Positions 1,955-59,337 are shown, counted from the stretch's first letter. The stretch: 64,000 bases of DNA from Planctomycetota bacterium (GCA_963581185.1 CAUZOB010000001.1:14826-78825), one strand, 5' to 3'. Translations and numbers: made by a program. The notes: generated from the letters alone by a model not told the origin.

Positions 1955-1980
1955 GATGAATCCGCAATTCGACGTGAGTG

Positions 1981-2751: not shown

Positions 2752-2755
2752 GCTG

Positions 2756-8005: not shown

Positions 8006-8204
8006 CGTTTTCTTCTTTTCAAGCGGAGGGTATTCTTCAAGGAGCACTCTGGAGTGCAAGACTGATTGTACTACGCCCCGGGCCGCCAGACAGCCAACCT
8101 GGCCGGTGGAGGATCAGGGGCCGTTCTTTTCAGCGGCCTATCAACAGCTGCTCGATCACGGCCAGCGTGACCCGATCTTCTCGTCGCACCTACTGAAAAC
8201 GACA

Positions 8205-9434: not shown

Positions 9435-9537
9435 CGTGGGACTCCCCGGAGTTGAACGGGACAAGGGATCTACATCGTGTACCCGAAATTTCCTTATAAA
9501 CGCCCGTCAGGCTACTTGTCCAGAGCCTTTCTGGCGT

Positions 9538-20119: not shown

Positions 20120-20164
20120 TTGTAGTCTCCTGCAAGGTGAAAATGGCCGAGTCTGCTTGTCGCC

Positions 20165-21829: not shown

Positions 21830-21981
21830 CTGTATGCTGACTGACGACCCGAGGGGAGACCGTTATGGAACATGACTATTTTAGCACGGTCTTGTTGGCT
21901 CAACCAATGCGTCTGGAATTCCACTATCATGAATAACTGCCCGCTCGCTCGCTTTCGTTCCTCCCGTTTACAAGGTGATTC

Positions 21982-23601
21982 ATGGCCATCCGCCATTCTT
22001 CCGTCGTTGCCCTGGTCGCTGTGCTGATTGTCCTGGCCGGAAACTGGACGCCCAATCCGGCTTATTCCCAGGCCATCACTGCCGACGTGCTGCTCACGGG
22101 TGGCACCATTCATGACGGCAGCGGCAAGCCACCGCAGGTTGGAGATGTTGCCGTCCTCGATGGCAAGATTGTGGCGGTGGGAGAGTTTGAGCTGGAGAGT
22201 GCCGAGCTGGTGATTCCCTGCCAGGGGCTGATTATTACACCGGGCTTTATCGACCTGCACAATCACAGCGATTCGGTGATAATTCGCAGCGGCACGCGGG
22301 CCAATATGAACTTTGTCCTGCAGGGCTGCACCACGATTGTGACGGGGAATTGTGGCGCAGGACCGATTGATGTGCAGGCTTACTATGAAGAGATAGACAA
22401 GGCGGGAGCGGGTACGAATGTGGTGCACCTGTTGCCGCAGGGGAACCTGCGTCGAGAGGTGATCGGCAATGTCCGTCGGCCGGCCACGATGGATGAACTG
22501 GAAGAAATGCAGAAACTGGCTGCCAAGGCCATGCAGGACGGCGCCTGGGGTATGTCGACGGGACTCATTTATGTCCCCAGCTCCTACGCGGATACCGACG
22601 AGTTGATTGCCATTGCAGGCGTGATTGCAGAACATGGCGGGATCTATGCCAGCCATATCCGCGGCGAAGGTTCCGGCTTGCTGGACTCGGTAAACGAGGC
22701 GATGGCGATTGGCAAAGGAGCGAAGCTGCCGGTTCACGTCTCCCACTTTAAATCCTCAGGCCGCGACAACTGGGGACTCGTACGAGTGGCAGTCGACCTG
22801 ATCGGCAAGGCGCGGGCCGAGGGTCAGCAGGTGACGGCCGACCAGTATCCTTACCGGGCCTCCAGTACCTCGCTGGATGCGACCCTGCTGCCCTCTCGCA
22901 TGCGCAGTGGCGGGCGAGAGGCAATGATCAAGCGGCTCGATGACGCCGAGCAGGGTGAGGCGATGGTGGCGGCTATCAAGCGCAGCCTGGATAAACGCGA
23001 TGGGGGTGAGTCGATTCGCATCGCGCGCTATGCACCCGGGAAAGAATGGGTCGGCAAGAACCTGGTGCAGATTGCAGAATTGGAAAGCAAGACGTCGCTG
23101 CAGATTGCCCTCGAGATTATTCGTGGCGGTGGTGCGGCGATCGTCAACTTCAGCATGGATGAGGAAGATGTCCGCTATGTGATGCGCGTCCCCTGGGTGG
23201 CCACAGCGTCGGACGGGCGGGCCTACCAGCCAGGTGCGGATCGACCCCATCCTCGCAATTATGGAACCTTTCCCCGCAAAATCGGCTACTACGGATACAA
23301 GCAGGGGAACCTCTCGCCGGAACAGGCGATTCGCAGCGCCACCGGCCTGCCGGCAGATATCCTGCAGATGACAGACCGCGGATATATCAAGGTTGGGCAG
23401 TTTGCCGACCTGGCAGTCTTCGATGCAGAGGAATTAATCGATGCGGCAACCTTTGATGATCCCCATCAGTATTCCCAGGGCATGCGCTATGTACTGGTCA
23501 ACGGCGTGCTGACCGTCTATCGCGGCACCGCAACCGGGGCCCTGGCCGGCAAGGCCCTGCGCTTCGCTGCCAGCAAAAAGCCAGCCGATGACCAGCGCTA
23601 G
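21982..23601 (+). CDS. D-aminoacylase (N-acyl-D-amino-acid deacylase), second paralogue, secreted
   Basis: 539 aa with a signal peptide. It shows ADVLLTGGTIHDGSG...GDVAVLDGKIVAVG and the metal motif PGFIDLHNHSD. The C-terminal block is ADLAVFDAEELIDAATFDDPHQYSQGMRYVLVNG. The layout is collinear with 9538..11193. Confidence 0.88.
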   Translation: MAIRHSSVVALVAVLIVLAGNWTPNPAYSQAITADVLLTGGTIHDGSGKPPQVGDVAVLDGKIVAVGEFELESAELVIPCQGLIITPGFIDLHNHSDSVIIRSGTRANMNFVLQGCTTIVTGNCGAGPIDVQAYYEEIDKAGAGTNVVHLLPQGNLRREVIGNVRRPATMDELEEMQKLAAKAMQDGAWGMSTGLIYVPSSYADTDELIAIAGVIAEHGGIYASHIRGEGSGLLDSVNEAMAIGKGAKLPVHVSHFKSSGRDNWGLVRVAVDLIGKARAEGQQVTADQYPYRASSTSLDATLLPSRMRSGGREAMIKRLDDAEQGEAMVAAIKRSLDKRDGGESIRIARYAPGKEWVGKNLVQIAELESKTSLQIALEIIRGGGAAIVNFSMDEEDVRYVMRVPWVATASDGRAYQPGADRPHPRNYGTFPRKIGYYGYKQGNLSPEQAIRSATGLPADILQMTDRGYIKVGQFADLAVFDAEELIDAATFDDPHQYSQGMRYVLVNGVLTVYRGTATGALAGKALRFAASKKPADDQR

Positions 23602-34685: not shown

Positions 34686-34869
34686 CGATTCACCTGCTCC
34701 TGATTCTAGTCCGGCCTGCCGGGAGTTTGTGTCAGAGGGAAGTGCTACAGTACAATGTCGCCCGCCGATCGTCAGGTCCTGAGAATTGTGACCGATCAGG
34801 ATTCAATCTTCCAGTTGTGGCTGGACCTGGTACCGGTCGGAAGCCCCAAGCCTGGATCACGTGGTCGCG

Positions 34870-35502
34870 ATGGCCAAGCTGTACTTTTATTACTCCGCGA
34901 TGAATGCCGGCAAGTCAACGACCTTGCTGCAGTCTAGCTATAACTATCGCGAACGCGGTATGCGCACAATCGTGCTGGTTCCGGACCTGGACACGCGAGA
35001 AGATTCGACCAGGGTGACATCCCGGATCGGCCTCTCGACTCCCGCTACCACATTCCACCTTGCCGATGACCTGTTCCAGATTGTCGAGCAGCAGCACAAT
35101 GACCAGCCACTCGATTGCGTACTGGTTGATGAAGCACAGTTTCTGACCCGCCCGCAAGTACTCCAGCTCTCCGACCTGGTGGATCGACTGGATATACCGG
35201 TGCTGGCTTACGGCCTGCGAACAGATTTCCAAGGAAAGCTTTTTGAGGGAAGTGAACAATTGCTGGCTTGGGCCGATAACCTGGTGGAAATCAAGACGAT
35301 CTGTCACTGCGGCCGCAAGGCGACGATGGTCCTGCGCACCGACAGTGAAGGCCAGGTGATCAAGGAAGGTGCCCAGATCCGGATCGGGGGCAATGAACTT
35401 TATGTCTCGGTCTGCCGCCGGCACTTCAAGGAAGGCATGGCCCAGCGAAGAACTGATGAACTGCAATTCGAGGATTTTGAGAGCGTGGAGGAACCAACAT
35501 GA
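34870..35502 (+). CDS. tdk: Thymidine kinase
   Basis: ATG 34870 gives [31 protein letters not shown] (P-loop). VDEAQFL and the C-terminal zinc ribbon CHCGRKAT...SVCRRH are present. Confidence 0.93.
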
Positions 35503-36776
35503 CGAACGCAGGACTTTGGCGAGGGATCCCTGGATTGTGCCTGGCATTACTGCTCTGTAGCTCTGCTGACGCTCTGCTGGCGGCAGAACCGGCCGGCAGC
35601 TGGCCCCAGTTCCTGGGACCGACACGGAATGGCATCTCCAGCGAGACTGGCTTGATCGATAGCTGGCCGGCGGGTGGACTCAAACAGGCCTGGCGGGTCA
35701 AGGGAGGCGTGGGGATGTCCGGCATCGCCGTGGCCGATGGAAAAGCGATCACGATGGTCCAGCGTGATGGCCGCCAACTGGTCATTGCGCTCGACGCTGG
35801 AAACGGAAAGTTGCTCTGGCAGACTGCTGTGGGGGCCGCTTTTCAGAATCCCATGGGACATGGCCCGCGGGCGACACCAACGATCGCCGCCGGACTGGTC
35901 CATGTTTTCACCGGGGATGGGCATACCGCCACGCTGGCATTGGCCGATGGCACGCTCCAGTGGCAGCATGACAGTCTCAAGGGACTCGGCGGACGTGTGG
36001 CCGATTACGGTATGGTCTGCTCGCCGCTGGTGGATGGCAACAACGTGATTGTGACCGTTGGAGCCCAGGCCGGTACGGTGGTCGCCTACGATACGAAAAC
36101 CGGTAAGCCTCAATGGTCCTCGGGCCAGGGGGATTCGGCAGGCTACTCGTCGCCGGTTGTTATCAAGCTGGCTGGCAAGCGGCAACTGGTGACGTTCAAT
36201 GGCCAGGCCCTGATCGGTACCGATCCGGCCAATGGGAACCTGCTCTGGCGATACGAGTACAAGACCGACTACGACTGCAATATCATGACCCCACTGTCGG
36301 TCAAAGGGCAGGTCTTTATCTCCGCGGGTGAAAACCATGGCAGCACTTTGCTGTCGGTGGTAGAGGAGAATGGCAAGTACCAGCTGAAGGAGACCTGGGA
36401 ATCGCTCGGCGTCCAGAGCGTGTTGCGCTGCGAATGGCAGACGCCAATCCAGCTGGGCGGCTATCTTTACGGCTTTGATAACGTCGGCGGAGCTGGTCCG
36501 ATATCCCACCTCACTTGTATTGAAGCTGCCACCGGCCGTCGCGTCTGGCAGCAGACGCGGTTCGGGAAAGGCAACATGATCGCTGCCGATGGCAAGCTGA
36601 TCATGACAACGCTTAAAGGGGAACTGGTAATCGTCAAGGCGAGCCACCAGGGGTTTGAAGAGCTGGGTCGCCAGCAGGCACTGGATCGAACCCGTCAGGC
36701 TCCCAGCCTGGCCGGCGGACTGCTGTATGTCCGTGATGACCAGGAGATCGCCTGCTTCGATCTCCGCAAACAGTAA
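35499..36776 (+). CDS. Secreted PQQ-like (BamB-type) beta-propeller repeat protein
   Basis: 425 aa with a signal peptide, then [18 protein letters not shown]... and repeated propeller blades ([47 protein letters not shown]). Its ATG overlaps the tdk stop (ATGA). Confidence 0.8.
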
Positions 36777-36816
36777 GCTGTCGAACGATAGACAATCTTG
36801 AGCCGCGAGCTACCTG

Positions 36817-37602
36817 ATGTTTTCACTGGCTGGACATAGCGCCCTGATCACAGGATCGACCAAGGGAGTTGGCTTGGCGATTGCCCGCTCGCTGGCTCAA
36901 GCGGGCGCCGATATCGTGCTGAATTGTCGCCAGGATGGCGAGCAGGCTCAGCAGGCACTGGAACTCTGCCGGGCCGAAGGAGTAAAAGCTGAACTGGTGA
37001 CGGCTGACCTGTCTGGTGACACGTCGGTCTGCGTGCAGCAGTTGTATAGCGCAGCACTCGAGGCCAACCCGGGAATTGACCTGCTGGTCAACAACGCCGG
37101 GACCTATATCGATAAACCATTCCTCGATATGGACCTCGAAACGTTCGATTACACGATGCGACTGAATGTCTACGCCAGTTACTTTCTCACCCAGGCTTTC
37201 GCGCGGCACTGGGTTGAAAATAAAGTGGCCGGTCGAGTGTTACTGATCGGCTCGATCAATGGCCAATTGGCAGAACAGGTTCATACCGCCTACGACACCT
37301 CCAAGGGGGCAGTCGCGATGATGGTCAAATCGCTCTGCGTGTCGCTGGCTCCACTCAATATCCGGGTCAACGGCCTGGCACCCGGACTTGTCTACACGCC
37401 ACTCACAGCCCCGGCACTGGATGATCCGGAATTCATGAAGTGGATGCAGTTGCACACGCCCAGCCAGCAGGTGCCAGGTCCCGAAGTCTGCGGCGAGGGA
37501 GCGGTTTATTTGCTGAGTGATGAGGCCCTGCACGTGCATGGGCAGATGCTGATGGTGGATGGTGGCATGAGCTCCTGGCAGCAGCCGGATCCTCCAGGTT
37601 AG
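36817..37602 (+). CDS. SDR-family oxidoreductase
   Basis: 261 aa. It has the cofactor motif ALITGSTKGVGLAIARSL, NNAG, and catalytic Y..K (YDTSKGAV). Confidence 0.9.
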   Translation: MFSLAGHSALITGSTKGVGLAIARSLAQAGADIVLNCRQDGEQAQQALELCRAEGVKAELVTADLSGDTSVCVQQLYSAALEANPGIDLLVNNAGTYIDKPFLDMDLETFDYTMRLNVYASYFLTQAFARHWVENKVAGRVLLIGSINGQLAEQVHTAYDTSKGAVAMMVKSLCVSLAPLNIRVNGLAPGLVYTPLTAPALDDPEFMKWMQLHTPSQQVPGPEVCGEGAVYLLSDEALHVHGQMLMVDGGMSSWQQPDPPG

Positions 37603-37713
37603 AAGGTCGTGGTTAAGTACAACCGGGCTCAATCCCTGGGCAGTTCGACGGAGGAGAGCGTAACAGGGTTGAGCGGCGGATCGTAATGGGTTTTTGATGC
37701 AAAGGGAGCAATC

Positions 37714-38238
37714 ATGAAATCGGGCGATAAGGCACCGCAGCTGACGCTGCTGGATTCAGAGAATCAGCCGGTTGAGTTGGCTTCATTGTGGCAGCAACAG
37801 TCGCTGGCGCTGTACTTCACACGCCACCTTGGCTGAGTTTTCTGTCGTGAGCAGATCGTGGATCTGCGACGTGCCGCCGACGACTACGCGCGAGCAAATA
37901 TTGCCATGGCCATCGTGATGATGGGTGCTGTCGAGAAAGTTGCTGCAATCAAGGAAAAATTCAAGGTGCCTTTCATCTGCCTGGCGGATCCGGAACAGGA
38001 AACCTACAGGGCATTTGAGATTCCTCGAGGTGGGCTCCTGTCGATTGCTGGTCCACGAATCTGGCTGGCCGGACTGAGGGCCTTGTTTCGTGGCGGTATG
38101 GGCCGGCCCGGTCCCGACGTCCACCAGATGCACGCTGCGGTGGTGATTGACACGGGTGGCATCGTGCAGCTGGTGCACTACCCGCGCAATTCGGCCGACC
38201 ATGTGAGTTTCCAACAAGTAGTGGCAACGCTCGGTTAA
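37714..38238 (+). CDS. Peroxiredoxin-like (AhpC/TSA, thioredoxin-fold) protein with in-frame TGA at the first redox Cys: candidate selenoprotein (UxxC); alternatively a nonsense pseudogene
   Basis: ATG 37714 has GGGAG 6 nt upstream. The reading is MKSGDKAPQLTLLDSENQPVELASLWQQQSLALYFTRHLG-TGA(37834..37836)-VFCREQIVDLRRAADDY...VATLG, all in one frame to TAA 38238. The TGA replaces the first Cys of the family's G-C-x-x-C-R motif. A SECIS-like hairpin follows. Confidence 0.6.
37846..37871 (+). promoter_or_regulatory. Candidate bacterial SECIS hairpin
   Basis: CGT-GA-GCAGATC-GTG-GATCTGC-G-ACG has a perfect 7-bp upper stem, a 3-bp lower stem and an internal loop. The apical loop contains G and U. 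The hairpin starts 9 nt after the in-frame TGA. Confidence 0.5.
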
Positions 38239-38298
38239 CTCCATCACAATGTGGAGGCTCACTGGCGTTTCCAGAAGATCCCCGATTCCCGCCCTGGC

Positions 38299-40002
38299 AT
38301 GATCATGGACATTGCTCCCTTGCAGCCGACCCGGGTTCGCTACAGTGTCATCTTTGCATCGATGCTGATGGCCATCCTGCTTTACCTGGATCGATTCTGC
38401 ATCGGGATTGCCGAGCCCTTTATTCGCCAGGATCTGGGCCTCTCGAAGATGCAGATGGGCGTTTTCATGAGCGCCTTTTTCTGGCCCTATGCACTTGCCC
38501 AGATTCCATCTGGCTGGCTGGCCGATCGTTTCGGCGCACGCAAGATGATGACCATCTACATCCTCTCCTGGTCGTTTTTTACTGCCATGATGGGACTCGC
38601 CACGGGCTTCATCATGCTGGTGGCGATGCGAGCTGCTTATGGACTTGGCCAGGCAGGAGCCTACCCGACTAGTTCGAGTATCGTGAGCCGGTGGATTCCA
38701 ATCCTTGGTCGTGGCCGTGCCAGCAGCTTCATTTCCCTGGGGGGCCGCATCGGTGGAGCAATTGCTCCCGTCCTGACAGCCATCCTGATCGTGGCATTTG
38801 TCTCGGCCGACAAGTCGCCGCTGCTGGAGCCGGAATCGGTGCTCGACAGTGCCCAGATACTGGAAAAACTCGGGGAGAGGAACGAGAAAGGCAACGAGGC
38901 CTACCTCTATCTCTTCAAGAAGTCGTCCGGCGCGCTGAAAGAGATTGTTTCATCTCCCCCCGACGAAAATACGGATCCGAGCCAGGACATCATTATAGCC
39001 AGCTTTAACCAGGCCATTCGAGATCCCGGCTTCTACTCGGCCGAAGCATTTCTTTCCATCAAGAACCTGGATCGATTTGCCACGAACTCGATCAAGAGAA
39101 TCGAGAGTGGTGAGACGCTTAATGACGCCGATTCAAAGAAGTTCAACCGGTTCCTGCTTGAATCGCTGTTCCCAATCGAAATTCAAAGGACCTATATGAA
39201 AAGCTGGCGACCGGTGCTCTGGCTTTATGGAGGCCTGGGCCTGCTGGTGGCTGGATTCTTCTGGCTCGTCGTTCGAGATCGACCGCAGCTTCATCCACGC
39301 TGCAATCAAGCGGAAATGGAACTGATCAGCGGGGGGATGGAACCGGACACAAGCAAAAAAATCGGCAGCATTCCGTTGGGAGATATCGTCAGCAGTCCCA
39401 GCCTCTGGTTTTCAAGCGTCTCCCAGATCGGGGTCAATATCGGCTGGCTATTTATTGGTACCTGGTTTCCCACCTACCTGCTGGAACAGCACCAGGTTCC
39501 GATCCTGGAACGGGGTACGATGGTCATGGTTCCATTTCTTGTTGGCTTCCCGGGAATGCTCCTGGGAGGAGTCGTGACGGACAAGCTGGTTTCGCTGATT
39601 GGCGTTCGCTGGGCTCGCAGGCTGCCCTGGATTATTTCCAAGTCCATCGCTGTTGGGGCGTTTGCCGTCTGCCCCCTGCTGGATTCCCCCTGGGCCGTTA
39701 CCGCGATGATGGCAACGGTCGCATTCTGCGTTGACTTCGGTAACCCGGCTACATGGGCATTCACCCAGGATGTGGGTGGCAAGCATGTCGGATCGGTCCT
39801 CGGTTTCGGGAACATGTGGGGCAACCTTGGTGCGGCGGTATCTCCTATCCTGCTCGCCTGGATCTTCGTGAATTACAGTTATTCGCACATGTTCTATACC
39901 TGTGCCGGCCTGTTCGCGATTTCAACCATCTGCAGTTTTTTCATTGATCCTACCGTGCCAGTCATTCGCGAAGACAAGTACCCTGGAGAGAGCATTGAGT
40001 GA
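38299..40002 (+). CDS. MFS transporter (anion:cation symporter-like) with a ~135-aa hydrophilic insertion
   Basis: I prefer ATG 38299 or 38305 (MIMDIAPLQPTRVRYSVIFASMLMAILLYLDRFCIG). The MFS motif is GWLADRFGARKMM. The insertion DKSPLLEPES...TYMKSWRP lies at about 38809..39213, between hydrophobic helices. Confidence 0.85.
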   Translation: MIMDIAPLQPTRVRYSVIFASMLMAILLYLDRFCIGIAEPFIRQDLGLSKMQMGVFMSAFFWPYALAQIPSGWLADRFGARKMMTIYILSWSFFTAMMGLATGFIMLVAMRAAYGLGQAGAYPTSSSIVSRWIPILGRGRASSFISLGGRIGGAIAPVLTAILIVAFVSADKSPLLEPESVLDSAQILEKLGERNEKGNEAYLYLFKKSSGALKEIVSSPPDENTDPSQDIIIASFNQAIRDPGFYSAEAFLSIKNLDRFATNSIKRIESGETLNDADSKKFNRFLLESLFPIEIQRTYMKSWRPVLWLYGGLGLLVAGFFWLVVRDRPQLHPRCNQAEMELISGGMEPDTSKKIGSIPLGDIVSSPSLWFSSVSQIGVNIGWLFIGTWFPTYLLEQHQVPILERGTMVMVPFLVGFPGMLLGGVVTDKLVSLIGVRWARRLPWIISKSIAVGAFAVCPLLDSPWAVTAMMATVAFCVDFGNPATWAFTQDVGGKHVGSVLGFGNMWGNLGAAVSPILLAWIFVNYSYSHMFYTCAGLFAISTICSFFIDPTVPVIREDKYPGESIE

Positions 40003-41008
40003 ACCAACCCTTGTCGGTAGCGACGATTTTCGATTTAAAGCAGACAATGCTTGGGCCCAGGTGCCAGCGGAATTTCAGTGGCAGGAAGCCGTCGGTGTAG
40101 CGGCCGATTCCACTGGCCGTGTCTATGTCTTTAACCGTGGCCCCTCGCCGGTCGTGATTCTTGACCGCGACGGCAGTTTTGTCGGGGGCTGGGGCCAGGG
40201 GGTCTTTAACCGCCCGCACGGGATCGTCGTGGACAACGATGACAACCTGTTCCTGACCGACGATATGGGACACAGCGTACGCAAGTACTCGCCCGACGGT
40301 GAACCGCTGATGGATGTGGGACCCAGCGGGATTCCCTCCGAGACCGGTGTTGAAGGAATGGACTTTCGCACCATTCGAGCCGGTTGCGGGCCGTACAACA
40401 TTCCCACCAACCTGGCCGTTGCTCCCAGCGGCGAGCTGTTTGTGGCTGATGGCTATGGCAATGCTGCCATTCATCGCTTCACGGCCGAGGGCCAGTTGAT
40501 CCAGTCGTGGGGCAACCCTGGAGATGGTCCCAGCCAGTTCAACGTACCCCATGGCATCGCGGTCGATAGCACGGGCCAGGTGATCGTGGCAGATCGCGAG
40601 AACAGTCGATTACAGTTTTTTAGCGACGAAGGTGAGCTGCTCGACACCTGGACCAATGTCGTGCGCCCGACACAGCTGGTGATCGACGACGCTGGCAACC
40701 TCTGGGTTTCGGAGCTGGGAACCATTGCCGGCCTGTTTCCCTTCATGGATCCACCCGAGGAGCCGGTTGGCTCCCGCGTCAGTATCTTCTCTGCCAGTGG
40801 TGAGCTGCTGGCCCGCTGGGGTGGTGGTAAGAATCCAGGATCGCCAGGCGACTTTTTCGCTGCCCACGACCTCTGGCTGGATCCTTTTGGGGACCTGTAT
40901 GTCAGCGAGGTGGTCTACTCGGCGGGCGGCAAGCATGGCATGGTGCCGGCCGACTGTCCCAGCCTGCAGAAATTCACCCGCCTGGCTTCCGAGCGGGGTG
41001 GTGATTGA
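39995..41008 (+). CDS. NHL-repeat beta-propeller, peptidyl-alpha-hydroxyglycine alpha-amidating lyase (PAL)-like
   Basis: The probable TTG start at 39995 follows GGAGAG and overlaps the MFS stop. NHL repeats include FNRPHGIVVDNDDNLFLTDDMGHSVRKY. The block FVADGYGNAAIHRFTAEGQLIQSWG...QFNVPHGIAVDSTGQVIVADRENSRLQFF closely mirrors the PAL catalytic-core pattern ADGYxNxRIxxF...FxVPH...VADRENxRIQxF. Confidence 0.75.
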   Translation: MSEPTLVGSDDFRFKADNAWAQVPAEFQWQEAVGVAADSTGRVYVFNRGPSPVVILDRDGSFVGGWGQGVFNRPHGIVVDNDDNLFLTDDMGHSVRKYSPDGEPLMDVGPSGIPSETGVEGMDFRTIRAGCGPYNIPTNLAVAPSGELFVADGYGNAAIHRFTAEGQLIQSWGNPGDGPSQFNVPHGIAVDSTGQVIVADRENSRLQFFSDEGELLDTWTNVVRPTQLVIDDAGNLWVSELGTIAGLFPFMDPPEEPVGSRVSIFSASGELLARWGGGKNPGSPGDFFAAHDLWLDPFGDLYVSEVVYSAGGKHGMVPADCPSLQKFTRLASERGGD

Positions 41009-42105
41009 TGGCTGCCAAGGGCGTCACAATCCTGGGCGGTGGCAACACGGCTTTTTCCGTGGCCGCCAGGCTGCAACTTGAAGGAGCAGCTGTCACGCTC
41101 TGCGAGATCCCCTCGTTTGCACATATGGTTGAGCCGATCCTGGAGAGCCGGCAGATAGAGCTGGATGGTGTGGCGGGCCAGGGTGTTGCCACGCTGGACT
41201 GTGTGACAACCGACTTTGCCGTCGGCCTGGCCGAGAACGAGTTAAACCTGCTGATCATCCCGGCCTATGGTCACCGGGCCTTCGCCGAAGCCTGCGCGCC
41301 ACATCTCAACAGCGGCCAGGTGCTGGTACTGATGCCGGGCACGCTCGGTTCACTGGAGTTTGCCCGCATCCTCAGGGAGGCTGGGGCCCCAGCCGACATC
41401 GTGCTGGCCGAGACGGACACGGCACCCTATGTCTGCCGCAAGATGACCGCCAGCCAGGCGCATATCTGGGGAGTGGTGAGTGCCCTTGGGCTGGGTGTCT
41501 TGCCGGCCAGTCAGGCTGAGCGAGTGCAGAAGCTCCTGGATCCGCTGTTTCCTGGAGTCCAGCTGTACGACAACGTGGTGACTTGTGGTCTGGCGGCAAT
41601 GAACCCGGTTGTGCATCCTGTCGGAGTGCTACTTAACGCGGGCCGGATTGAGCAGAGCCAGGGTGACTTCCATTTTTATGGTGAAGGGGTGACGCCAGGC
41701 GTCTGCCGCCTGATCTACCAAGTCGACCGAGAGCGACTGGCCGTGGCGGCGGCCCTGGGAGCTGAGTTGCTGCCAGTGGACAAGGCATTTCATGCGGCTG
41801 GCTTTGGGCCAGCTGGAGATCTTGAGGCTACCATCAACGGTAGCGAGATGCTGACTGCATTGAAGGCACCTGGTCAACTCGACACCCGCTGGTTGACCGA
41901 GGATGTTCCCTACGGACTGGCAGCCTGGTCCGCACTTGGTTTGCAGTACGGTGTCAGTTGTCCGACGATGGAGTCCCTGGTGGATTTGATCGGGACACTG
42001 CTGGGCCAGGATTTTCGCCAGCAGGCACGCAGCATGGCCGACCTCGGTATTGACGGAATGTCGCTGTCAGACCTGCAGCAGTACCTCCAGGATGGCACCA
42101 GCTGA
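41008..42105 (+). CDS. NAD(P)-dependent opine (octopine/nopaline-type) dehydrogenase family protein
   Basis: ATG 41008 overlaps the NHL stop (TGATG). The N-terminal Rossmann motif is VTILGGGNTAFSVAARL. Length and helical C-terminal domain pattern (PYVCR, NPVVHPVGVLLNAGRIE, FYGEGVTP) are typical of opine dehydrogenases. Confidence 0.75.
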   Translation: MAAKGVTILGGGNTAFSVAARLQLEGAAVTLCEIPSFAHMVEPILESRQIELDGVAGQGVATLDCVTTDFAVGLAENELNLLIIPAYGHRAFAEACAPHLNSGQVLVLMPGTLGSLEFARILREAGAPADIVLAETDTAPYVCRKMTASQAHIWGVVSALGLGVLPASQAERVQKLLDPLFPGVQLYDNVVTCGLAAMNPVVHPVGVLLNAGRIEQSQGDFHFYGEGVTPGVCRLIYQVDRERLAVAAALGAELLPVDKAFHAAGFGPAGDLEATINGSEMLTALKAPGQLDTRWLTEDVPYGLAAWSALGLQYGVSCPTMESLVDLIGTLLGQDFRQQARSMADLGIDGMSLSDLQQYLQDGTS

Positions 42106-42147
42106 GTTTTTCTGGATCGAAGATTGGCATAAGGGAGATCGGCAACG

Positions 42148-42825
42148 ATGTATCCAGATGATCAACAGGCCCAGCAGATGTTGGGCGACGCACTTGAGAC
42201 CATCGATCGATACTACAAGGATCGTGGTATCTTCCAGGACCGCTTTGGATTTGGCCAATCACCGGCCCTGGTGGTGGTGGATTTTGCCTATGGCTGGACG
42301 GATGAAGCATACGCCGGCGGTACAGCGCGACTGGACGGCCCGGTGGAGGCGACGCGCCAGTTGCTCGAGGCAGTTCGGGCAAAGAACGTGCCGATCATCT
42401 ATACCACCAGCCCGTACCGGCCAGAGAGTGGCGATCAGCCTTTCAAATCGGCAGCTGATCCGTCGGTCGAGTACCGCGAGTGGGATGCCCGAGCCTGTGA
42501 AATCGACCAGCGGATTGCCCCGCGCGACGAGGATTACGTGATCGAGAAAGAGAGTGCCAGCGCGTTTTCTGGAACACACCTGGCTGGCTACTTGATCCAG
42601 CAGCAGGTCGACACGCTGCTGATCACTGGCTGCAGCACAAGTGCCTGCATTCGCGCCACGGCGACCGACGCCAAGAGTCTGAGGTTGAGGCCTGTGATCG
42701 TGGATGAATGTGTCGGTGATCGCTCGGCCGTTGCTCACGTGTTTACACTATTTGATATCCAGGCACGTTTTTCTGATGTCTGTAGCCTCGCCGAGACGAC
42801 AGATTATCTGGCTGGACTCGAATAA
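42148..42825 (+). CDS. Isochorismatase-family hydrolase, N-carbamoylsarcosine-amidase-like
   Basis: 225 aa. Motifs are PALVVVDFAYGWTD and the catalytic Cys block LLITGCSTSACIRATATDA. Confidence 0.8.
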   Translation: MYPDDQQAQQMLGDALETIDRYYKDRGIFQDRFGFGQSPALVVVDFAYGWTDEAYAGGTARLDGPVEATRQLLEAVRAKNVPIIYTTSPYRPESGDQPFKSAADPSVEYREWDARACEIDQRIAPRDEDYVIEKESASAFSGTHLAGYLIQQQVDTLLITGCSTSACIRATATDAKSLRLRPVIVDECVGDRSAVAHVFTLFDIQARFSDVCSLAETTDYLAGLE

Positions 42826-42853
42826 TTGGTATTCCTGCGGAGGAGATCGTTCG

Positions 42854-43741
42854 ATGAACGACAAGCCAGGCTATTTCACTTTTCCCAACGGCCATCCGAA
42901 TGCCGTCTACAGCGTGGCCTTCATGCCAGATGGCAAGCGGGTTCTGAGTGGTGGTCTGGATCATGCAATCCGCATCTGGGATGTCGCCAAGCGAACGGCG
43001 ATCACGCTGGATGAATCTCATGCTGATGGTGTGTCGGGAGTGGCGGTTGATTCGACCGGTAAGTGGATTGTCTCCACCGGGCTGGACCAGCTGGTCAAGG
43101 TCTGGGAGTCCTCGGCCGGGGCCTCAGAGGCGACCTTGAATGGGCACGGTGCCTATGTGGTTGGAGTTGCCTGTTCGCCGGTTGCCGAGCAATTTGCCTC
43201 AGCCAGCCACGACAAGACAGTTCGCCTCTGGAACCGCCAGGGCCAGCAGTCGGTGCTCAATGGTCACACCGACCTGGTGATTGCGGTCGCCTATAGCCGG
43301 GATGGCAAGCAGCTGGCCTCGGCCGGCAAGGATGGATCGGTGCGATTGTGGGACAGCACGAGTGGCGAGGCTGGCACGGTACTGTCGGGTCATGATGGAT
43401 CCGTGGAGAGCGTGGCATTCTTGCCAGACGGCCGCCGCTGTGTGTCGGCCGGCGGGGATGGACTGGTCATCCTCTGGGATATTGAGAAGTCAGCCATCGT
43501 TCATCGGCTGCGTGGCCACGAGGGTTACGTGAAGTCGGTGAGTGTTTCGCATGACGGAGCAACGATCGCATCGGGCGGCCAGGATGGAACGATACGACTC
43601 TGGTCGGCAGAGACTCTGCAGCCGCTAAATCTGCTGGAAGGGCACCGTAACACGGTCTACAGCCTTTCCTTTTCGCCGGATGGCAAGCAACTCGCCAGCG
43701 GCGGCTTTGATCGCCGCGTGAACGTCTGGGATCTTGGTTGA
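42854..43741 (+). CDS. WD40 repeat protein (seven-bladed, no additional domain)
   Basis: I prefer ATG 42854, with GGAGGAG upstream (MNDKPGYFTFPNGHPNAVYSVAFMPDGKRVLSGGLDHAIRIWD). Seven GH...WD repeats follow. The track start at 42704 lies inside the previous gene. Confidence 0.85.
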   Translation: MNDKPGYFTFPNGHPNAVYSVAFMPDGKRVLSGGLDHAIRIWDVAKRTAITLDESHADGVSGVAVDSTGKWIVSTGLDQLVKVWESSAGASEATLNGHGAYVVGVACSPVAEQFASASHDKTVRLWNRQGQQSVLNGHTDLVIAVAYSRDGKQLASAGKDGSVRLWDSTSGEAGTVLSGHDGSVESVAFLPDGRRCVSAGGDGLVILWDIEKSAIVHRLRGHEGYVKSVSVSHDGATIASGGQDGTIRLWSAETLQPLNLLEGHRNTVYSLSFSPDGKQLASGGFDRRVNVWDLG

Positions 43742-43742
43742 T

Positions 43743-45092
43743 TCAGACTTCCGGCAGAGGCTGGTAGTGGTCATGTTCGACCAGGTACCGTGGGCGACCG
43801 CTGAGATCCTTGATCGTGGCGCGGTTGATGTCGATGCCCATATTGCGATACAGCGTAGCGTGGATTTCCTGGAAATGCACCGGCCGATCGATGGCATGCT
43901 CGGCATGCGGATTGGTGGCACCGATTACCTGGCCGGTGCGCATTCCGCCGCCGAACATCAAGGCGCTGCCAACTCGTGGCCAGTGGTCGCGGCCACCCTT
44001 GGCATTGACCCGTGGCGTGCGACCAAACTCACCCCAGACAAGGACTGTCACGTCCTTGTCCATACCCCGATCCTTGAGATCATCCATCAACGTGCTGACC
44101 CCCTGATCGAGTGCAGGCAGATGATCGCGAGCATTTTCAAAATTCGTGCCGTGGGGCCGGCCGTGCCAGTCCCAGCGTCCATAGGCCAGCGTGACGACTC
44201 GCACACCCGCTTCTACCAGTCGCCGGGCTGCCAGGAAATAGTCATTCTGCAGTGGCCCCGCATCGCCATAGCCGGCCGGCAGGTCGGACCCACGCCCGTA
44301 GCGATCACGCAATGCCGGGTCTTCCTTTTCCAGGTCCAGCGCGTCGGCTAGCTGGCTGTTTGTGAGAATACCGAGTGCCTGGTCGGTGAAGGCATCCACA
44401 CCCTCCAGCTCAGTTACCCGGTTCACCAGTTTCTTGTAGGCGTCCAGTTTTCCCAGCAGTCTGCGGCGGTCCTGGAACTGCTCGATGCCGATACCCTGCA
44501 GAGCGAGGCTGCGAGCGCCATCGGCGTTGGGCAGGAATGGAGCGTGAGCGGGGCCGACAAAGCCGGCCTGGCCAGGATCCTTCCAGCCACCAGTTTTCAT
44601 GTTAGGCGAGAGCCCGACGAAGGGTGGTACACCGCGGACCGCGGTTCCCTGCAGCTTGGAAACGGCCGATCCAAACGAGGGCCAGCCGCCGACAGGCTGG
44701 TTATCTGAGTGACGGCCGGTCATGCACTGGAAGGCAGCATGACGGTCCTTGGCACCAACCACGCTGCGAATCAGCACCATCTCGTTCATGCGATCGGCGA
44801 TCAATGGCAAGTGTTCGCAGATCTGGATGCCGGGTACACGAGTCGAGACTGGCTTGAATTCGCCACGAATCTCAACCGGAGCATCTGGCTTGAGGTCGAA
44901 CATATCCTGGTGAGGTGGCCCACCGGAAAGGAAGATCATGATCACGGACTTGGAAGATCGCCCGTTGCCTGTAGCAGATTCAGCTGCCAGCAGCTGGGGC
45001 AGGGCAGCACCCCCCATCGCCAGTGAGCCGATCTGGAGGAAGTTGCGACGGTCGATTCCGTCGCAAAATGGGATCTTCTTGTTGGTCGTCAT
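43743..45092 (-). CDS. DUF1501 domain protein (Tat signal), no DUF1553 partner adjacent
   Basis: I prefer ATG 45092 (MTTNKKIPFCDGIDRRNFLQIGSLAMGGAALPQLLA). The family block is VWGEFGRTPRVNAKGGRDHWPRVGSALMFGGGMRTGQ. Confidence 0.9.
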   Translation of the reverse strand: MTTNKKIPFCDGIDRRNFLQIGSLAMGGAALPQLLAAESATGNGRSSKSVIMIFLSGGPPHQDMFDLKPDAPVEIRGEFKPVSTRVPGIQICEHLPLIADRMNEMVLIRSVVGAKDRHAAFQCMTGRHSDNQPVGGWPSFGSAVSKLQGTAVRGVPPFVGLSPNMKTGGWKDPGQAGFVGPAHAPFLPNADGARSLALQGIGIEQFQDRRRLLGKLDAYKKLVNRVTELEGVDAFTDQALGILTNSQLADALDLEKEDPALRDRYGRGSDLPAGYGDAGPLQNDYFLAARRLVEAGVRVVTLAYGRWDWHGRPHGTNFENARDHLPALDQGVSTLMDDLKDRGMDKDVTVLVWGEFGRTPRVNAKGGRDHWPRVGSALMFGGGMRTGQVIGATNPHAEHAIDRPVHFQEIHATLYRNMGIDINRATIKDLSGRPRYLVEHDHYQPLPEV

Positions 45093-45433
45093 TTTTTCAA
45101 GCTGCAGGTGGAATGTGCATCGTTGCTGTGGCCAGGATTGTGGCCGCCAGCGTAGATATCGGCAATATCTGTTTACTGCTTCCAGCATATCAGATCGGGT
45201 TTGTGGATCCTAGCAATTGCTACGTCGTGCGATCACCGCCAGCAACGCCGTGCCGAGAGGGTTTGAGCTGAAAAACCGGTCTGCGCCGGAAATTATCGAG
45301 CCGGCCTGATGGGCCTTATGGGGCGGTGGATAAACGGCAGTCTTTTGCTAGAATCTGGCGTTCAGCAAGTAAAGCCCGTTGCTTGACATGCTGAGTCGCG
45401 TTGAACGCGAGTGAGTTAGACAGGGGAGTGACT

Positions 45434-47195: not shown

Positions 47196-48677
47196 CTAGC
47201 TCTCAAAAACCTCGCGGACCACGTGCGACTCATCCGGACCGGTCAAGCGCTGGTCCAGGCCCTGGTAGAAGAATGCCAGCTGCTCGTGATCGAGTCCCAT
47301 CAGGTGCAGGATCGTGGCATGCAGGTCGGAGACATGCACGGGCCTGTCAATGCTGCCGAAGCCAAAGTCGTCGGTCACGCCGATCGCCTGACCACCTCGC
47401 ACGCCACCACCGGCCAACCACATGCTGAAAGCATGCCAGTTGTGATCGCGGCCTGGCTTATCAACTCCCTCACTCGTCGGCGTGCGGCCAAACTCGCCGC
47501 CCCAGACAAACAGCGTCTCGTCCCAGAGGCCACAGTCCTTCATATCCTGCATCAATGCCGCCATCGGACCATCTGTTTCTCCGGCATGCAGCTTGTGGTT
47601 CGTAATGCAATCTGTATGGCCGTCCCAGGTATCCTCGATATGTCCGCCGCCGGAATAGAGCTGGACAAACCGCACTCCCTTTTCCAGCAAGCGTTTGGTA
47701 ACCAGGCACTTGCGGCCAAAGTCACTTGTGAGCGGGTTATCCAGCCCGTATCGCTCGTGCGTCTGCTTGGATTCTCTACCCAGGTCAACAACACCCTGGG
47801 CAGCAGATTGCATGCGAAAAGCGAGTTCGTACGATTCAATTCGAGCTGCCAGTTCTGATTCTCGCTGGCGTTGCAGCAGGTGCTGCTTGTTCAGTTTTCC
47901 CAGCAGGTCGAGGCTGCGGCGCTGACCCTCAGGGCTGATGCCGGCCGGGTTGTTGAGGTTCAACAGCGGCACGTCGCCGCTGCGAAAATGTGTACCCTGG
48001 TAAGCGGCCGGTATGTAGCCGCTGCTCCAGTTCGACGCGCTGCCAATCGGCCCTCCGCGGGGATCGATCATCACCACGTAGCCGGGCAGGTTCTGGTTAA
48101 ATGTCCCCAGGCCATAGTTGACCCAGGAGCCCAGGCTGGGACTGCCAATCCCCACCTTGCCGGTATTCATCTGGATACAACCCGAGGCATGGGCCGCCGT
48201 GTCGGTGTACATCGAACGAATCACACAAAGATCGTCGGCATGTTTGGAGAGCTGCGGGTAGAGGCTGCTGATCGGCAAGCCACTCTCGCCGAACTGTTTG
48301 AACGGGAACGGTGACTTCATCAAGTAACCAATCGGTCGGCCGTTCGATCCAACCTCCAACTCACCCACGTACTTCTCCCCATCATGCTTGTCCAGCATCG
48401 GCTTGGGGTCGAACGTGTCGACCTGGCTCGGCCCGCCATTCATGAAGAAGAAGACGCAGCGGGTTGCGCGGGGCTTGAAGTGCGGTTCTCTGGGTGCCAG
48501 CAGCCCCTCTGGACCGGTCTGGGGTTCGGCCTGCAGTTGATCGAAATAGCCATCGCGACTGAGTAGATCCAGCAGGGCCAGGCCGGTAAACCCCGCTCCC
48601 CCTTCCCACAACATCTGGCGACGTGTCTGGCCACAGCCTGTCTGGTTGGGAATCAGCTGTCGATGTGAGGTTGTCAT
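47196..48677 (-). CDS. DUF1501 domain protein (Tat signal)
   Basis: I prefer ATG 48677 (MTTSHRQLIPNQTGCGQTRRQMLWEGGAGFTGLALLDLL). The family block is VWGGEFGRTPTSEGVDKPGRDHNWHAFSMWLAGGGVRGGQ. It lies 23 nt downstream of a DUF1549/DUF1553 gene. Confidence 0.9.
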   Translation of the reverse strand: MTTSHRQLIPNQTGCGQTRRQMLWEGGAGFTGLALLDLLSRDGYFDQLQAEPQTGPEGLLAPREPHFKPRATRCVFFFMNGGPSQVDTFDPKPMLDKHDGEKYVGELEVGSNGRPIGYLMKSPFPFKQFGESGLPISSLYPQLSKHADDLCVIRSMYTDTAAHASGCIQMNTGKVGIGSPSLGSWVNYGLGTFNQNLPGYVVMIDPRGGPIGSASNWSSGYIPAAYQGTHFRSGDVPLLNLNNPAGISPEGQRRSLDLLGKLNKQHLLQRQRESELAARIESYELAFRMQSAAQGVVDLGRESKQTHERYGLDNPLTSDFGRKCLVTKRLLEKGVRFVQLYSGGGHIEDTWDGHTDCITNHKLHAGETDGPMAALMQDMKDCGLWDETLFVWGGEFGRTPTSEGVDKPGRDHNWHAFSMWLAGGGVRGGQAIGVTDDFGFGSIDRPVHVSDLHATILHLMGLDHEQLAFFYQGLDQRLTGPDESHVVREVFES

Positions 48678-48700
48678 CTGGGGAGCTCCGTCACGATTTA

Positions 48701-50968
48701 TCAATCGGAATATACGATTTCGTTGAGGTTCAATAAGATTCGGCAGAACTGCACCAGGGCAACATGCTCGGGGGCCATGCCGGCCTGGTCCGGCTGCCTG
48801 CGAGCGAGCTCGGTTTCCTGCTCAAGGAATTCCAGCGTCACTCGCTTTTCCTGCCCGCTGGGGAATCGAGAGAGTGCCAGCCGATAAGCAAGTCTCACCT
48901 GGTCCACCGGCCTGGGTCCTGCTTCGCTAACTAGCCTGTCTGCCAGGTAGCCGGCCTGGCGATTGACAAAGTCGCCGTTGAACATCGTCAGCGCCTGCGG
49001 CGCGACGCTGGTAACAAGTCGCTCGGGGGCAGGACGCGTCGTGTCGCAGAGGTCCAGTACCTCCAGGAACGGTACGATCAACGATCGCTTGACATAAGCA
49101 TAGATGGTGCGGCGATTGGCACTCTGTTCATCGAAAGCTGGCCAGATCGACCTCTTGTCGGCATGACCGTCGAGCGCCTCGCTGGGCACAAAGGGATACA
49201 TGCTGGGGCCATACATGGTGCGATCCAGCTTGCCGCTGATGGCCAGCAGCGAGTCACGAATTGCCTCCACTTCAAGCCTTACATAGGGCTTGCGCCACAA
49301 TAACAGGTTCTCAGGGTCTTCGTCGTAGTACTTGTCGTTACCAACCGTCGACATGCGGTAGGCGTTGCTGGTCATGATCAGCCGATGCAGCTTTTTCATC
49401 GACCAGTTGGCATCGTGGACGAACCAGTGGGTCAGCCAGTCGAGCAACTGCTGGTGAGTCGGTGGCGTGCCCATCACGCCAAAGTCGCTGGGCGTGCGCA
49501 CAATACCGGCCCCGAAATGATGCTGCCAGATGCGATTGACAATCACGCGTGCCGTAAGAGGGTTCTCGGGGCGGGCGATCCAGCGGGCCATTGTCAGTCG
49601 GCGGCGCGTCGTTCGCTCACTCGCCGCCAGGAACTCAGGCTGCCCACGCGTCAGCACCGTTGGGACTCCCGGTTGGACCACCGGTCCCGGACTGCTGGCA
49701 CTGCCTCGCACCAGCAAGTGTGTGATCGGTGGCTGGGGGGAGGGCTCAACATAGAAATAGCCATTTGGCAGATCAGGCATCTCCTTGCGCAGTTGCTCGA
49801 TCTGCTTGAGTCCCTGCTGGCAGGTCTCGGCCGCTACTGGTTCCATCAATGGTGACAGCTCCTTGACGATCTGGGCCAGCTGCCCGCCAATCCGCTGCTG
49901 TTCGTCCCCCGTCAGCGTGCCCCACTCCTTGACCAGCAGGCTGCGGACATTCTCCGGCAGGCTGGTTTCGATCTGCTCCGCCTTGAGTTTCTCCAGCAGC
50001 AGGCGGGCTCCCGCCTGGTAGGCCTGGTGAACCTGTTTGCGCTGGCTGCTGATCGCAGCCCTGGCTGTATTCAGCTTTGCCACTTCTGCGACCGAGCCTG
50101 CCGGTGAGTCGAGATCGGTACGGCCACTTTGCGGTCGTTGCAGGGGGTCCAGGACTGCGATCATGCGGTAATAGTCATGCTGCGTGTAGGCTTCAAACTT
50201 GTGGTCATGGCAGCGTGCGCAGGCCAGCGTGATACCGAGGAATGTCTGCGAGGTGGCATTCAGCATGTCATCCAGCTGATCGAAACGATCCTGGGGGAAG
50301 TCAGCTGGCTCATCATCCCAGGGCCCCAGTCGGTAGAAGCCGGTGGCAATCATCGATTCCGTGCTGGCATCGTCCAGCTCGTCGCCGGCCAGCTGTTCCA
50401 GCACGAAGCGGTCGTAGGGCTTGTCGTCATTGAAGCTGCGGATCACGTAATCACGAAATCGCCAGACGCTTGGCTTGCCGGCGTCGCGCTCGTATCCATT
50501 TGTCTCGGCAAATCGCACCAGGTCCAGCCAGTGGCGTCCCCAGCGCTCACCATATCCCTTGTCAGCGAGCAGGTCGTCGATGTACGTGTCGAAGGCCTCG
50601 GGAGACGGTTGTGAGAGCAACAAGTCCTGTTGCTGCAGGGTCGGTGGCAGACCGACCAGGTCCAGCGAGATGCGTCTCAGCAGCGCATTCGCGCTGGCAG
50701 CTTCGGCTGGATGCCAGCCGCGCCGTTCAAGTTTATGCAGGATGAAGGCATCGATTTCGTTGCGGACCCAGCGGGTCTGTCGGGTTTCCGGAACGGCCGG
50801 CCTTTTGACAGCTTGAAAGGCCCAGTGCTCACGATCCTCGTCGGTCACCGATGCGTCTGCCCTGACCAGTTCATCAGCCGGCTTGTCCTGCGACCAGGCA
50901 GGCAGGGCCATGCCGAGCAGGAGCAGCAATGAAGCACATGTTCGGTAAGAGTTGGCTTGTCCTATCAC
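48701..50968 (-). CDS. DUF1549/DUF1553 domain protein
   Basis: 755 aa with a GTG start at 50968 and a signal peptide. It has IDAFILHKLERRG, LLRRISLDLVGLPPT and CARCHDHKFEAYTQHDYYRM. The C-terminus ...FCRILLNLNEIVYSD is typical of the family. Confidence 0.9.
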   Translation of the reverse strand: MIGQANSYRTCASLLLLLGMALPAWSQDKPADELVRADASVTDEDREHWAFQAVKRPAVPETRQTRWVRNEIDAFILHKLERRGWHPAEAASANALLRRISLDLVGLPPTLQQQDLLLSQPSPEAFDTYIDDLLADKGYGERWGRHWLDLVRFAETNGYERDAGKPSVWRFRDYVIRSFNDDKPYDRFVLEQLAGDELDDASTESMIATGFYRLGPWDDEPADFPQDRFDQLDDMLNATSQTFLGITLACARCHDHKFEAYTQHDYYRMIAVLDPLQRPQSGRTDLDSPAGSVAEVAKLNTARAAISSQRKQVHQAYQAGARLLLEKLKAEQIETSLPENVRSLLVKEWGTLTGDEQQRIGGQLAQIVKELSPLMEPVAAETCQQGLKQIEQLRKEMPDLPNGYFYVEPSPQPPITHLLVRGSASSPGPVVQPGVPTVLTRGQPEFLAASERTTRRRLTMARWIARPENPLTARVIVNRIWQHHFGAGIVRTPSDFGVMGTPPTHQQLLDWLTHWFVHDANWSMKKLHRLIMTSNAYRMSTVGNDKYYDEDPENLLLWRKPYVRLEVEAIRDSLLAISGKLDRTMYGPSMYPFVPSEALDGHADKRSIWPAFDEQSANRRTIYAYVKRSLIVPFLEVLDLCDTTRPAPERLVTSVAPQALTMFNGDFVNRQAGYLADRLVSEAGPRPVDQVRLAYRLALSRFPSGQEKRVTLEFLEQETELARRQPDQAGMAPEHVALVQFCRILLNLNEIVYSD

Positions 50969-54199: not shown

Positions 54200-54921
54200 T
54201 GGACGGACTCAATCACAGACCTGTTGCGAGGCTGGCGTGTTTCGCCTTCGTGATCTGTGCCTTGCTGCCATCGGTCAGCAGAGCCCAGCAGTCGGCCATG
54301 ATCTCGGTGTTCGATGCGATCGACAATGGCCAGCTCGATGTGCGCGTGGTTGCCAAACACGCCAATCAGCTGACCATCATGCTGCACAATACGACCGAGC
54401 AGCCTCTGGTCGTGAAGCTGCCGAGCGTCTTTGCTGCGGTGCCAGTTTTGCCGGAGCAGCAACGCTTGTCCGCTGCCAGCACCCAGCCACAATCGCTTGG
54501 TATCGGCTATTCATCGCCGACAATTCGCAAGGTTGCCCCGCCTGGTAATGGCCAGCTCTGGGGCGCTGTCAATTCAGGCGGCGTGTTGCAGGTGGGGCCC
54601 GGCCGCGTTGTCCGCCGCACACTCAGGTCAGTCTGCCTGGAGTACGGCAGTCCGGAGCCGACACCGAAGGACAAGTACAAGCTGGCTCGTATTGAGGATG
54701 TTGAGAGCAACAAGTATGTCAGCAGGCTGCTGGGTTATCTGCGAGCAGATTCACATCGAGTGATCCAGTTGGCGGCCTGGCACCTGAATAACAAGATGAC
54801 CTGGCAACAGCTGTCGACGATCCGAATTCCTCCCATGCCTGGCCGTCCTGGCGGTGTATTTCGGCAGCAGGAGCTGCAGACAGCTTATCGGCTGGTTGAG
54901 TTTCTGACGGAGAGTCCGTAG
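54199..54921 (+). CDS. Secreted hypothetical protein
   Basis: 240 aa with signal peptide ARLACFAFVICALLPSVSRAQQ. Its ATG shares one base with the upstream stop (TAATG). I recognise no motif. Confidence 0.6.
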   Translation: MDGLNHRPVARLACFAFVICALLPSVSRAQQSAMISVFDAIDNGQLDVRVVAKHANQLTIMLHNTTEQPLVVKLPSVFAAVPVLPEQQRLSAASTQPQSLGIGYSSPTIRKVAPPGNGQLWGAVNSGGVLQVGPGRVVRRTLRSVCLEYGSPEPTPKDKYKLARIEDVESNKYVSRLLGYLRADSHRVIQLAAWHLNNKMTWQQLSTIRIPPMPGRPGGVFRQQELQTAYRLVEFLTESP

Positions 54922-59045: not shown

Positions 59046-59337
59046 CGGCTTACAGATTACAGCTGAGGGTTAGGCGCGGATCCTGCAGAATCCTCCGAGA
59101 GCCAGTCAACTGTCCAACGGCAGCTTTTTCAACGCCCAATCGAGCTGATCGTTATAACCTGCTCGCTGGCTGGTACATCCGCTACAGAATTCCCCCCGCC
59201 CGGCGTCGTCATGAGTGAATTCAGCTGACCTTTCGCTGGCAAGGCGCATAATTGCGCACATACGGGGCACAGCGATCGAGGAGGCCAGTCCATGGGCTGG
59301 CGATGGCCTCCAGGAACAGAGATCGCAGGGAGGCACC

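Follow-up and report, generated by a model that had tools for sequence, protein, structure and literature searches.

Gene content of the locus

The window, by which we mean the whole 64,000-nucleotide stretch of Planctomycetota DNA analyzed here, carries a run of plus-strand genes whose products Pfam assigns, in order, to a thymidine kinase (TK), a PQQ-like propeller protein, a short-chain dehydrogenase (SDR), the proposed selenoprotein, an MFS transporter, an NHL-repeat protein, an octopine/nopaline-dehydrogenase family protein (OpDH), an isochorismatase-family protein and a WD40 protein. The MFS, NHL and octopine-dehydrogenase neighbors are as the original prediction described them. The features discussed below are as follows.

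36817-37602, plus strand: short-chain dehydrogenase (Pfam adh_short), the upstream neighbor, syntenic in all close loci and in the more distant locus L017
37703-37708, plus strand: Shine-Dalgarno-like AGGGAG, 5 nt 5' of the ATG, read from the sequence and with a putative function
37714-38238, plus strand: proposed selenoprotein gene, 174 codons (Sec as codon 41) plus TAA, for a SelL-related/Prx-like thioredoxin-fold redox protein
37834-37836, plus strand: in-frame UGA, the predicted selenocysteine at codon 41, a TGA in relatives and aligned with Cys
37834-37845, plus strand: predicted redox motif U-V-F-C (Sec and resolving Cys)
37846-37871, plus strand: extended hairpin as first drawn, whose outer 3 bp (37846-37848 with 37869-37871) are specific to the window
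37851-37867, plus strand: 17-nt core hairpin of the candidate SECIS, with a 7-bp stem (37851-37857 with 37861-37867) and the loop GUG at 37858-37860
37858-38238, plus strand: 126-aa ORF reported by gene callers, whose GTG start is the hairpin loop
38251-40002, plus strand: MFS transporter (Pfam)
39902-41008, plus strand: NHL-repeat protein (Pfam)
41005-42105, plus strand: OpDH (Pfam)

From the ATG at 37714 the frame runs through 40 sense codons ending ...ALYFTRHLG, meets the TGA, continues as VFCREQIVDLRR... and closes at the TAA at 38236-38238, which gives 174 sense codons when the TGA is included as one. Translation of the plus strand thus places the ATG, TGA and TAA exactly where they had been predicted. 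The start is shared with relatives, as the window gene and its orthologs begin alike with MK(Q/S)GD, and the gene is intact, with no stop or frameshift beyond the TGA at 37834-37836. A reassigned code, with TGA read as Trp or Gly, is ruled out, since TGA is the ordinary terminator of 23 of the 48 large ORFs in the window. When the window was searched by motif for other in-frame TGA candidates, nothing but noise emerged besides the one at 37834.

An antisense ORF of 159 aa (37783-38262, minus strand) spans nearly the whole of the gene. It is longer than the truncated sense ORF, and a length-based gene caller could choose it wrongly; we regard it as a shadow ORF, opposite the conserved gene on the plus strand.

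The gene is separated from its neighbors by 111 nt upstream and 12 nt downstream. Scanning 36700-38500 revealed no promoter-like site, and the sole terminator-like site there (38457-38476) scores at chance level and lies inside the MFS ORF. The gene is probably cotranscribed with the MFS, NHL and OpDH genes, and it may plausibly head a transcription unit with the MFS gene.

Gene order is kept in the close loci to the limit of each contig, in a 58-kb ENA contig for upwards of 20 kb, and the complete run through the octopine dehydrogenase is present in L001 and L014. When window positions 34861-43741 were compared with L001, L005-L009, L011, L012 and L014, the proposed selenoprotein was the least conserved member of the cluster, at 65-70% identity versus 78-92% for SDR, MFS, NHL, OpDH and TK. 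These sequence comparisons suggest that it evolves faster than its neighbors while keeping the UGA and the hairpin.

Several other features of the window deserve mention. A 3-keto-disaccharide hydrolase domain occurs in two large proteins (6071-8059, minus strand, and 12981-15671, plus strand), one fused to a glucose/sorbosone dehydrogenase propeller and the other to a PQQ-like propeller. Next to an FAD-dependent oxidoreductase of the DAO family lies an electron-transfer flavoprotein alpha/beta pair (983-4009, minus strand); the longest ORFs at 1981-2874 and 2756-4009 overlap by 119 nt, so that one of the starts is probably further downstream. Pfam gives no match at E <= 1e-5 for six ORFs of 240-637 aa, namely 4057-5970, 8388-9464, 11245-12159 and 21826-22746 on the minus strand and 52586-54199 and 54199-54921 on the plus strand.

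A thioredoxin-fold protein that spans the UGA

With Cys written for U, the Pfam AhpC/TSA match (E = 2.7e-15) covers residues 4-152 and runs across the TGA. The same substitution gives 132.9 bits (E = 9.1e-39) against the NCBIfam model NF040769, "SelL-related redox protein," whose curated cutoff is 120 bits, with the alignment extending over profile positions 2-172 of 173. A second Pfam family, PF13911 (AhpC-TSA_2), scores 25.7 bits on the window protein, under its 27-bit cutoff, and is present as a precomputed match on all close homologs. The best PDB match by sequence is 9us9, a prostamide/prostaglandin F synthase (E = 3e-4, residues 18-174), in which G-C-V-V-C-R aligns with G-U-V-F-C-R of the window.

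The protein had been proposed to be peroxiredoxin-like. This holds for the fold, which is of the AhpC/TSA type and passes the NF040769 cutoff, but not for membership among the canonical peroxiredoxins. The window motif is G-U-V-F-C, not the canonical T/S-x-x-C(U); Sec41 is the residue three before Cys44, where Thr does not stand, and a His lies three before the Sec. Lacking the T-x-x-C motif and scoring 39 bits on the BCP equivalog, whose cutoff is 140, the protein is not a canonical peroxiredoxin (Prx/AhpC/BCP) and falls with the UxxC "Prx-like" kind. Selenoprotein L proper is likewise ruled out, as there is a single TGA and the motif is U-V-F-C (U-V-F-T in L011 and L012), with no UxxU. More precisely, the sequence places the family in the CxxC-type "Prx-like"/SelL-related, PF13911-like group. 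By analogy with other thioredoxin-fold proteins, the U-x-x-C motif should lie at the N terminus of a helix.

The extent of the domain bears on how the locus is to be read. Gene callers resolve all close homologs in a manner that implies two products, a peptide of 40 residues that stops at the TGA and a separate protein of 126 residues initiated from the GTG at 37858; in L012, L014 and L022 the two ORFs, of 40 and 126 aa, are called next to each other. For the window, too, the ORF track lists only the 126-aa fragment, with the GTG in the hairpin loop, as had been remarked at the outset. However, the AhpC/TSA match spans the stop, Cys-form homologs are single chains of 180-195 aa, and a split would leave the fold short of both its first beta strand and its active-site motif. 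With the proposed GTG start falling in the loop of the hairpin as well, we regard two separate products as extremely unlikely, and favor a single chain with selenocysteine at codon 41.

Conservation of the UGA and its pairing with cysteine

Evidence that public records shorten this gene, as the original prediction expected, is apparent from its closest relatives. In a collection of 5.8 billion proteins, the closest 14 proteins (60-98% identity) are without exception fragments, 108-133 aa long and starting just past the motif, and the sole full-length match, P0015, reads TRHLGCAFCRQQ. NCBI names the close homologs "AhpC/TSA family protein" (127 aa) or "hypothetical protein," and the Pirellulaceae orthologs carry no selenoprotein annotation in public records.

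When 1.84 billion cluster representatives were searched exhaustively with HMMER, 709 relatives emerged, of which the best 150 were classified. Among these 150, 73 are full length and 76 are N-truncated ORFs of ~100-140 aa that start right after the motif. The full-length representatives mostly read RHxGCxxC (58 of 73), with CxxT or CxxS in a few. In all six truncated clusters that were sampled, an in-frame TGA stands at the equivalent place.

At the nucleotide level, TGA occupies the homologous codon (R-H-x-G-U-x-x-C/T) in each of 23 fetched loci, whose proteins are 27-98% identical to that of the window, and 19 of the 23 are distinct in the sequence immediately 3' of the TGA. The fetched loci comprise metagenome-assembled genomes (two Pirellulaceae, one Planctomycetaceae and one Deltaproteobacteria), six JGI metagenome contigs, and Logan and ENA contigs, with marine and soil metagenomes among the sources. 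In alignment, the first Cys of RHxGCxxC falls on U41, both for P0015 and for 58 of the 73 full-length representatives. The claim that the stop sits on the first redox Cys is therefore borne out, and position 41 is indeed occupied across homologs by TGA or, in the full-length forms, by Cys.

Among the more divergent loci, the Planctomycetaceae homolog (L003:3019-3070) has 31% identity, the motif G-U-T-F-C and the TGA. L017:309-360, identical in L018, is a Sec form at 43% identity; upstream of it lies an SDR fragment 77% identical to the window SDR, so that L017 is probably a syntenic ortholog in a lower-GC relative. Two syntenic orthologs with ~65% identity after the Sec codon (L011:1449-1460 and L012:1723-1734) read U-V-F-T, with the TGA and the hairpin unchanged. 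As Thr replaces Cys44 in these two while the Sec codon and the hairpin are kept, Sec appears to be the indispensable residue. Their motif resembles the UxxT listed for glutathione peroxidases (GPx).

A lone in-frame stop in a short gene looks like a fresh nonsense mutation, and gene callers handle the TGA in that way. The locus might on that account be a pseudogene, a Cys-form Prx-like gene hit by a TGC/TGT-to-TGA mutation, or might reflect a sequencing or assembly error. Neither can explain a TGA that recurs identically in 23 loci that were assembled independently and reach down to 27% identity, and again in the truncated clusters. Both halves of the gene are under purifying selection; the N-terminal 40 codons show protein-level conservation with synonymous variation, and the C-terminal part is conserved at the protein level too. 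The relatives have no additional disabling mutations in the form of further stops or frameshifts, which the original prediction had named as a sign of decay, and conservation is higher in the nucleotides 3' of the stop than in the remainder of the gene. We assign this explanation a vanishingly small probability. The conserved UGA is instead well accounted for by a functional, Sec-encoding gene.

A conserved hairpin downstream of the UGA

The core hairpin, GCAGAUC-GUG-GAUCUGC, has seven Watson-Crick pairs and begins 14 nt past the UGA. Its 17 nucleotides fold with an energy of -8.1 kcal/mol, and the 26-mer of the original prediction with -10.8 kcal/mol (z = -2.6). Longer single-sequence folds of 52-76 nt around the UGA favor another, window-specific minimum-energy structure with insignificant z-scores, so a single sequence alone is insufficient for a SECIS claim. 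As a measure of chance, a perfect Watson-Crick hairpin of 7 bp or more that satisfies the SECIS loop and spacing rules follows 11 of the window's 2062 TGA triplets (0.5%).

Comparison among loci is more informative. In a 20-locus alignment that is gapless from the UGA, the RNAalifold consensus is the core helix and nothing else. The 7-bp helix has 89.5% of its cells paired; shifting the 3' arm by 1-3 columns lowers this to 16-43%. Double changes affect four of the seven pairs, in 15 cells, and run from G-C to C-G, A-U or U-A, from A-U to G-C or C-G, from U-A to C-G and from C-G to G-C. The covariation score was reached by none of 500 column shuffles; since 11 of the 20 aligned hairpins are near-identical, it rests on ~8 divergent sequences, and L003 does not fit. 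Within these bounds, the comparison favors the expectation that Sec-containing orthologs share the hairpin, with compensating changes in four pairs, L003 excepted.

The loci that depart from the consensus do so in different ways. L003 has no hairpin in the family register, L013 has a hairpin with one U-C mismatch, L022 has a 7-bp hairpin displaced by 4 nt with the loop AGUU, and the hairpin of L017 and L018 is AU-rich (GCAAAU-GGUCA-AUUUGC).

The hairpin as first drawn was thus correct in its 7-bp core at 37851-37867, which is conserved, but not in its 3-bp lower stem, which is particular to the window. The 3' partner of that stem is ACG in the window and GAG, GAA or GTC in relatives; the pairing of CGU (37846-37848) with ACG (37869-37871) is not kept and so lies outside the conserved element. 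An alternative lower helix (37845-37846 with 37868-37869) has 86% of its cells paired but shows no double changes, and was also set aside.

The published model of bacterial SECIS elements calls for a loop 3-9 nt long that has G within its first two positions, followed by G/U, a stem of 4-16 bp, a UGA-loop spacing of 16-37 nt and an energy of at most -7.5 kcal/mol (PMC13188914). The window hairpin agrees with all four, with its loop GUG, 7 bp, 21 nt and -8.1 kcal/mol. From the UGA to the apical loop there are 21 nt in the window, and 17 of the 20 aligned loci have a spacing of 20-21 nt; in the alignment G25 never varies and U26 is conserved to at least 90%. The geometry claimed at the outset, with the loop a little over 20 nt from the UGA and opening with G-U, is accordingly confirmed. 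Rfam scans of the whole window at the gathering threshold, and of 37700-38000 with E up to 10, gave chance-level matches only and no SECIS family.

Selection on the RNA is also visible in the codons. Among nine close orthologs, synonymous codon identity is 0.87 at codons 41-53 versus 0.56 elsewhere, and at codons 118-132, where the protein is as highly conserved as at 41-53, it is ~0.4. The peak at codons 41-53 therefore points to an RNA-level constraint on top of the coding constraint, at the place expected for a SECIS. Of the 20 Sec-form loci, 19 have GUN (Val) as the loop codon; just 2 of 68 Cys forms have Val at this position, Ala being their commonest residue. This bias fits the requirement for a loop that opens with G-U.

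Selenocysteine machinery and lineage

Pfam scans of 40 window ORFs detected no SelA, SelB or SelD; outside the scanned set are the ORFs at 54932-58132 (minus strand, 1066 aa), 59215-63183 (plus strand, 1322 aa) and 63145-63987 (minus strand, 280 aa, reaching the end of the window), as well as short ORFs. ARAGORN found no tRNA, tRNA-Sec included, in the 64-kb window or in 17 loci, and none of selA, selB, selD or tRNA-Sec was present in any fetched locus. Absence of the machinery from a 64-kb window alone says little. Complete selA/selB/selC/selD sets, along with several selenoproteins, have been reported in Planctomycetes, including a Rhodopirellula (PMC4807772).

The closest relatives of the window are marine Pirellulaceae, some of them recovered in a Tara mesopelagic sample. 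On the minus strand, the window has three DUF1501 genes (18848-21829, 43743-45188 and 47196-50968), two of them paired with PSCyt2/PSD1 (DUF1549/DUF1553) genes, a pair characteristic of planctomycetes. This content agrees with the Pirellulaceae origin suggested by the homologous metagenome-assembled genomes.

That no Sec machinery was found in the window or the fetched loci is what might be expected if the UGA were bypassed without Sec, either through near-cognate read-through by Trp or Cys or, with the machinery lost, with little or no full-length product. Simple read-through needs neither alignment of the stop with the catalytic Cys, nor a hairpin, nor a G-U loop. All three are present here, including a SECIS-model hairpin maintained by compensatory change and by suppressed synonymous change, and a GU loop codon specific to the UGA forms, and they count against bypass, which we consider very unlikely. 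Taken together, the evidence makes us confident that 37714-38238 is a functional, intact Sec-encoding gene whose first active-site residue is selenocysteine.

Discussion

How such a protein would be made and would act can be outlined from established systems. The UGA at 37834-37836 would be recoded during translation by standard bacterial Sec recoding, with the hairpin at 37851-37867, 14 nt past it, acting as a bacterial SECIS. On arrival of the UGA in the A site, the hairpin would bring SelB-GTP-Sec-tRNA(Sec) to the ribosome, and Sec would be inserted in place of termination to yield the full-length protein. Dependence on SelB and the insertion itself we infer from the form and conservation of the element. 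In the protein, the selenolate of Sec41 would be the attacking nucleophile of the U-x-x-C redox center, and Cys44 would resolve the intermediate as a selenenylsulfide. In the two orthologs with Thr in place of Cys44, an external thiol would then have to resolve it. The substrate may be a peroxide, a disulfide or an endoperoxide-type oxidant, possibly tied to the colocated SDR/MFS/NHL/opine-dehydrogenase genes.

The candidate SECIS shares with the E. coli fdhF type a stem-loop in the coding sequence just 3' of the UGA, a 17-nt minihelix and a small loop opening with G-U. It differs in that the window stem has no bulged U and there is no primary-sequence match to an Rfam SECIS. The spacer of fdhF is 11 nt, as against 14 nt in the window hairpin.

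The protein most resembles the UxxC "Prx-like" selenoproteins and NF040769, with which it has in common an AhpC/TSA-type thioredoxin fold, Sec/Cys pairs among homologs, occurrence in marine bacteria and a SECIS after the UGA; it departs from them in that two window-type orthologs have UxxT. In contrast to SelL, with which it shares a Prx-like fold, a redox motif at the equivalent structural position and an aquatic distribution, the window protein has one Sec (UxxC/UxxT), and NCBIfam files it as "related" and not as SelL. Shchedrina et al. reportedly described SelL in 2007 as having two Sec residues (UxxU) that form a diselenide. Vertebrate SelU belongs to the PRXL2/PF13911 group; the likeness of the window protein to that group, represented by 9us9, lies in a CxxC aligned with its U-x-x-C, the similarity is distant, and we see no evidence for a prostaglandin-type substrate in a planctomycete. 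SelL of eukaryotes and marine bacteria is known as a Prx-like protein with a diselenide (PMC2398784, PMC2397514). UxxC "Prx-like" selenoproteins have been set apart from TxxU Prx (PMC1088965) and are known from the Sargasso Sea, from GOS data and from deltaproteobacterial genomes (PMC1088965, PMC2398784, PMC1794560). The name "Prx-like thiol:disulfide oxidoreductase" appears in PMC1794560 and PMC13188914, and a 2026 review considers Prx-like selenoproteins "predicted with high confidence" (PMC13188914). This literature (PMC1088965, PMC2398784, PMC1794560, PMC13188914) bears out the premise that Prx-like oxidoreductases are a known class of bacterial selenoproteins. The gene is an unannotated selenoprotein of this already known type, and it introduces no new mechanism or kind of selenoprotein.

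A more specialized role can be imagined, in which the Pirellulaceae group forms a functionally distinct, unannotated SelL-related/Prx-like-2 branch, its Sec enzyme dedicated to the SDR-Sel-MFS-NHL-opine-dehydrogenase-isochorismatase cluster. We think this rather unlikely. Were it so, the enzyme would provide a selenium-dependent step by which an imported compound is taken up or catabolized and would not act as a general antioxidant, about half of the 50%-identity clusters of the family would be Sec forms that are systematically truncated in databases, and the UxxT variants would point to GPx-like, single-Sec chemistry.

For the functional, Sec-encoding gene that we favor, the value of the finding lies partly in the RNA. 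The locus offers a clean example of a SECIS constraint shaping a protein sequence, in that the loop codon is Val in the Sec forms. It also adds to the evidence that a marine Pirellulaceae lineage decodes Sec. For annotation, the gene, its 14 closest homologs and about half of the representative clusters (among the best 150 of 709) are recorded as fragments of ~126 aa. As these fragments are without the active site, inventories of redox proteins and of selenium use in marine Planctomycetes are undercounted.
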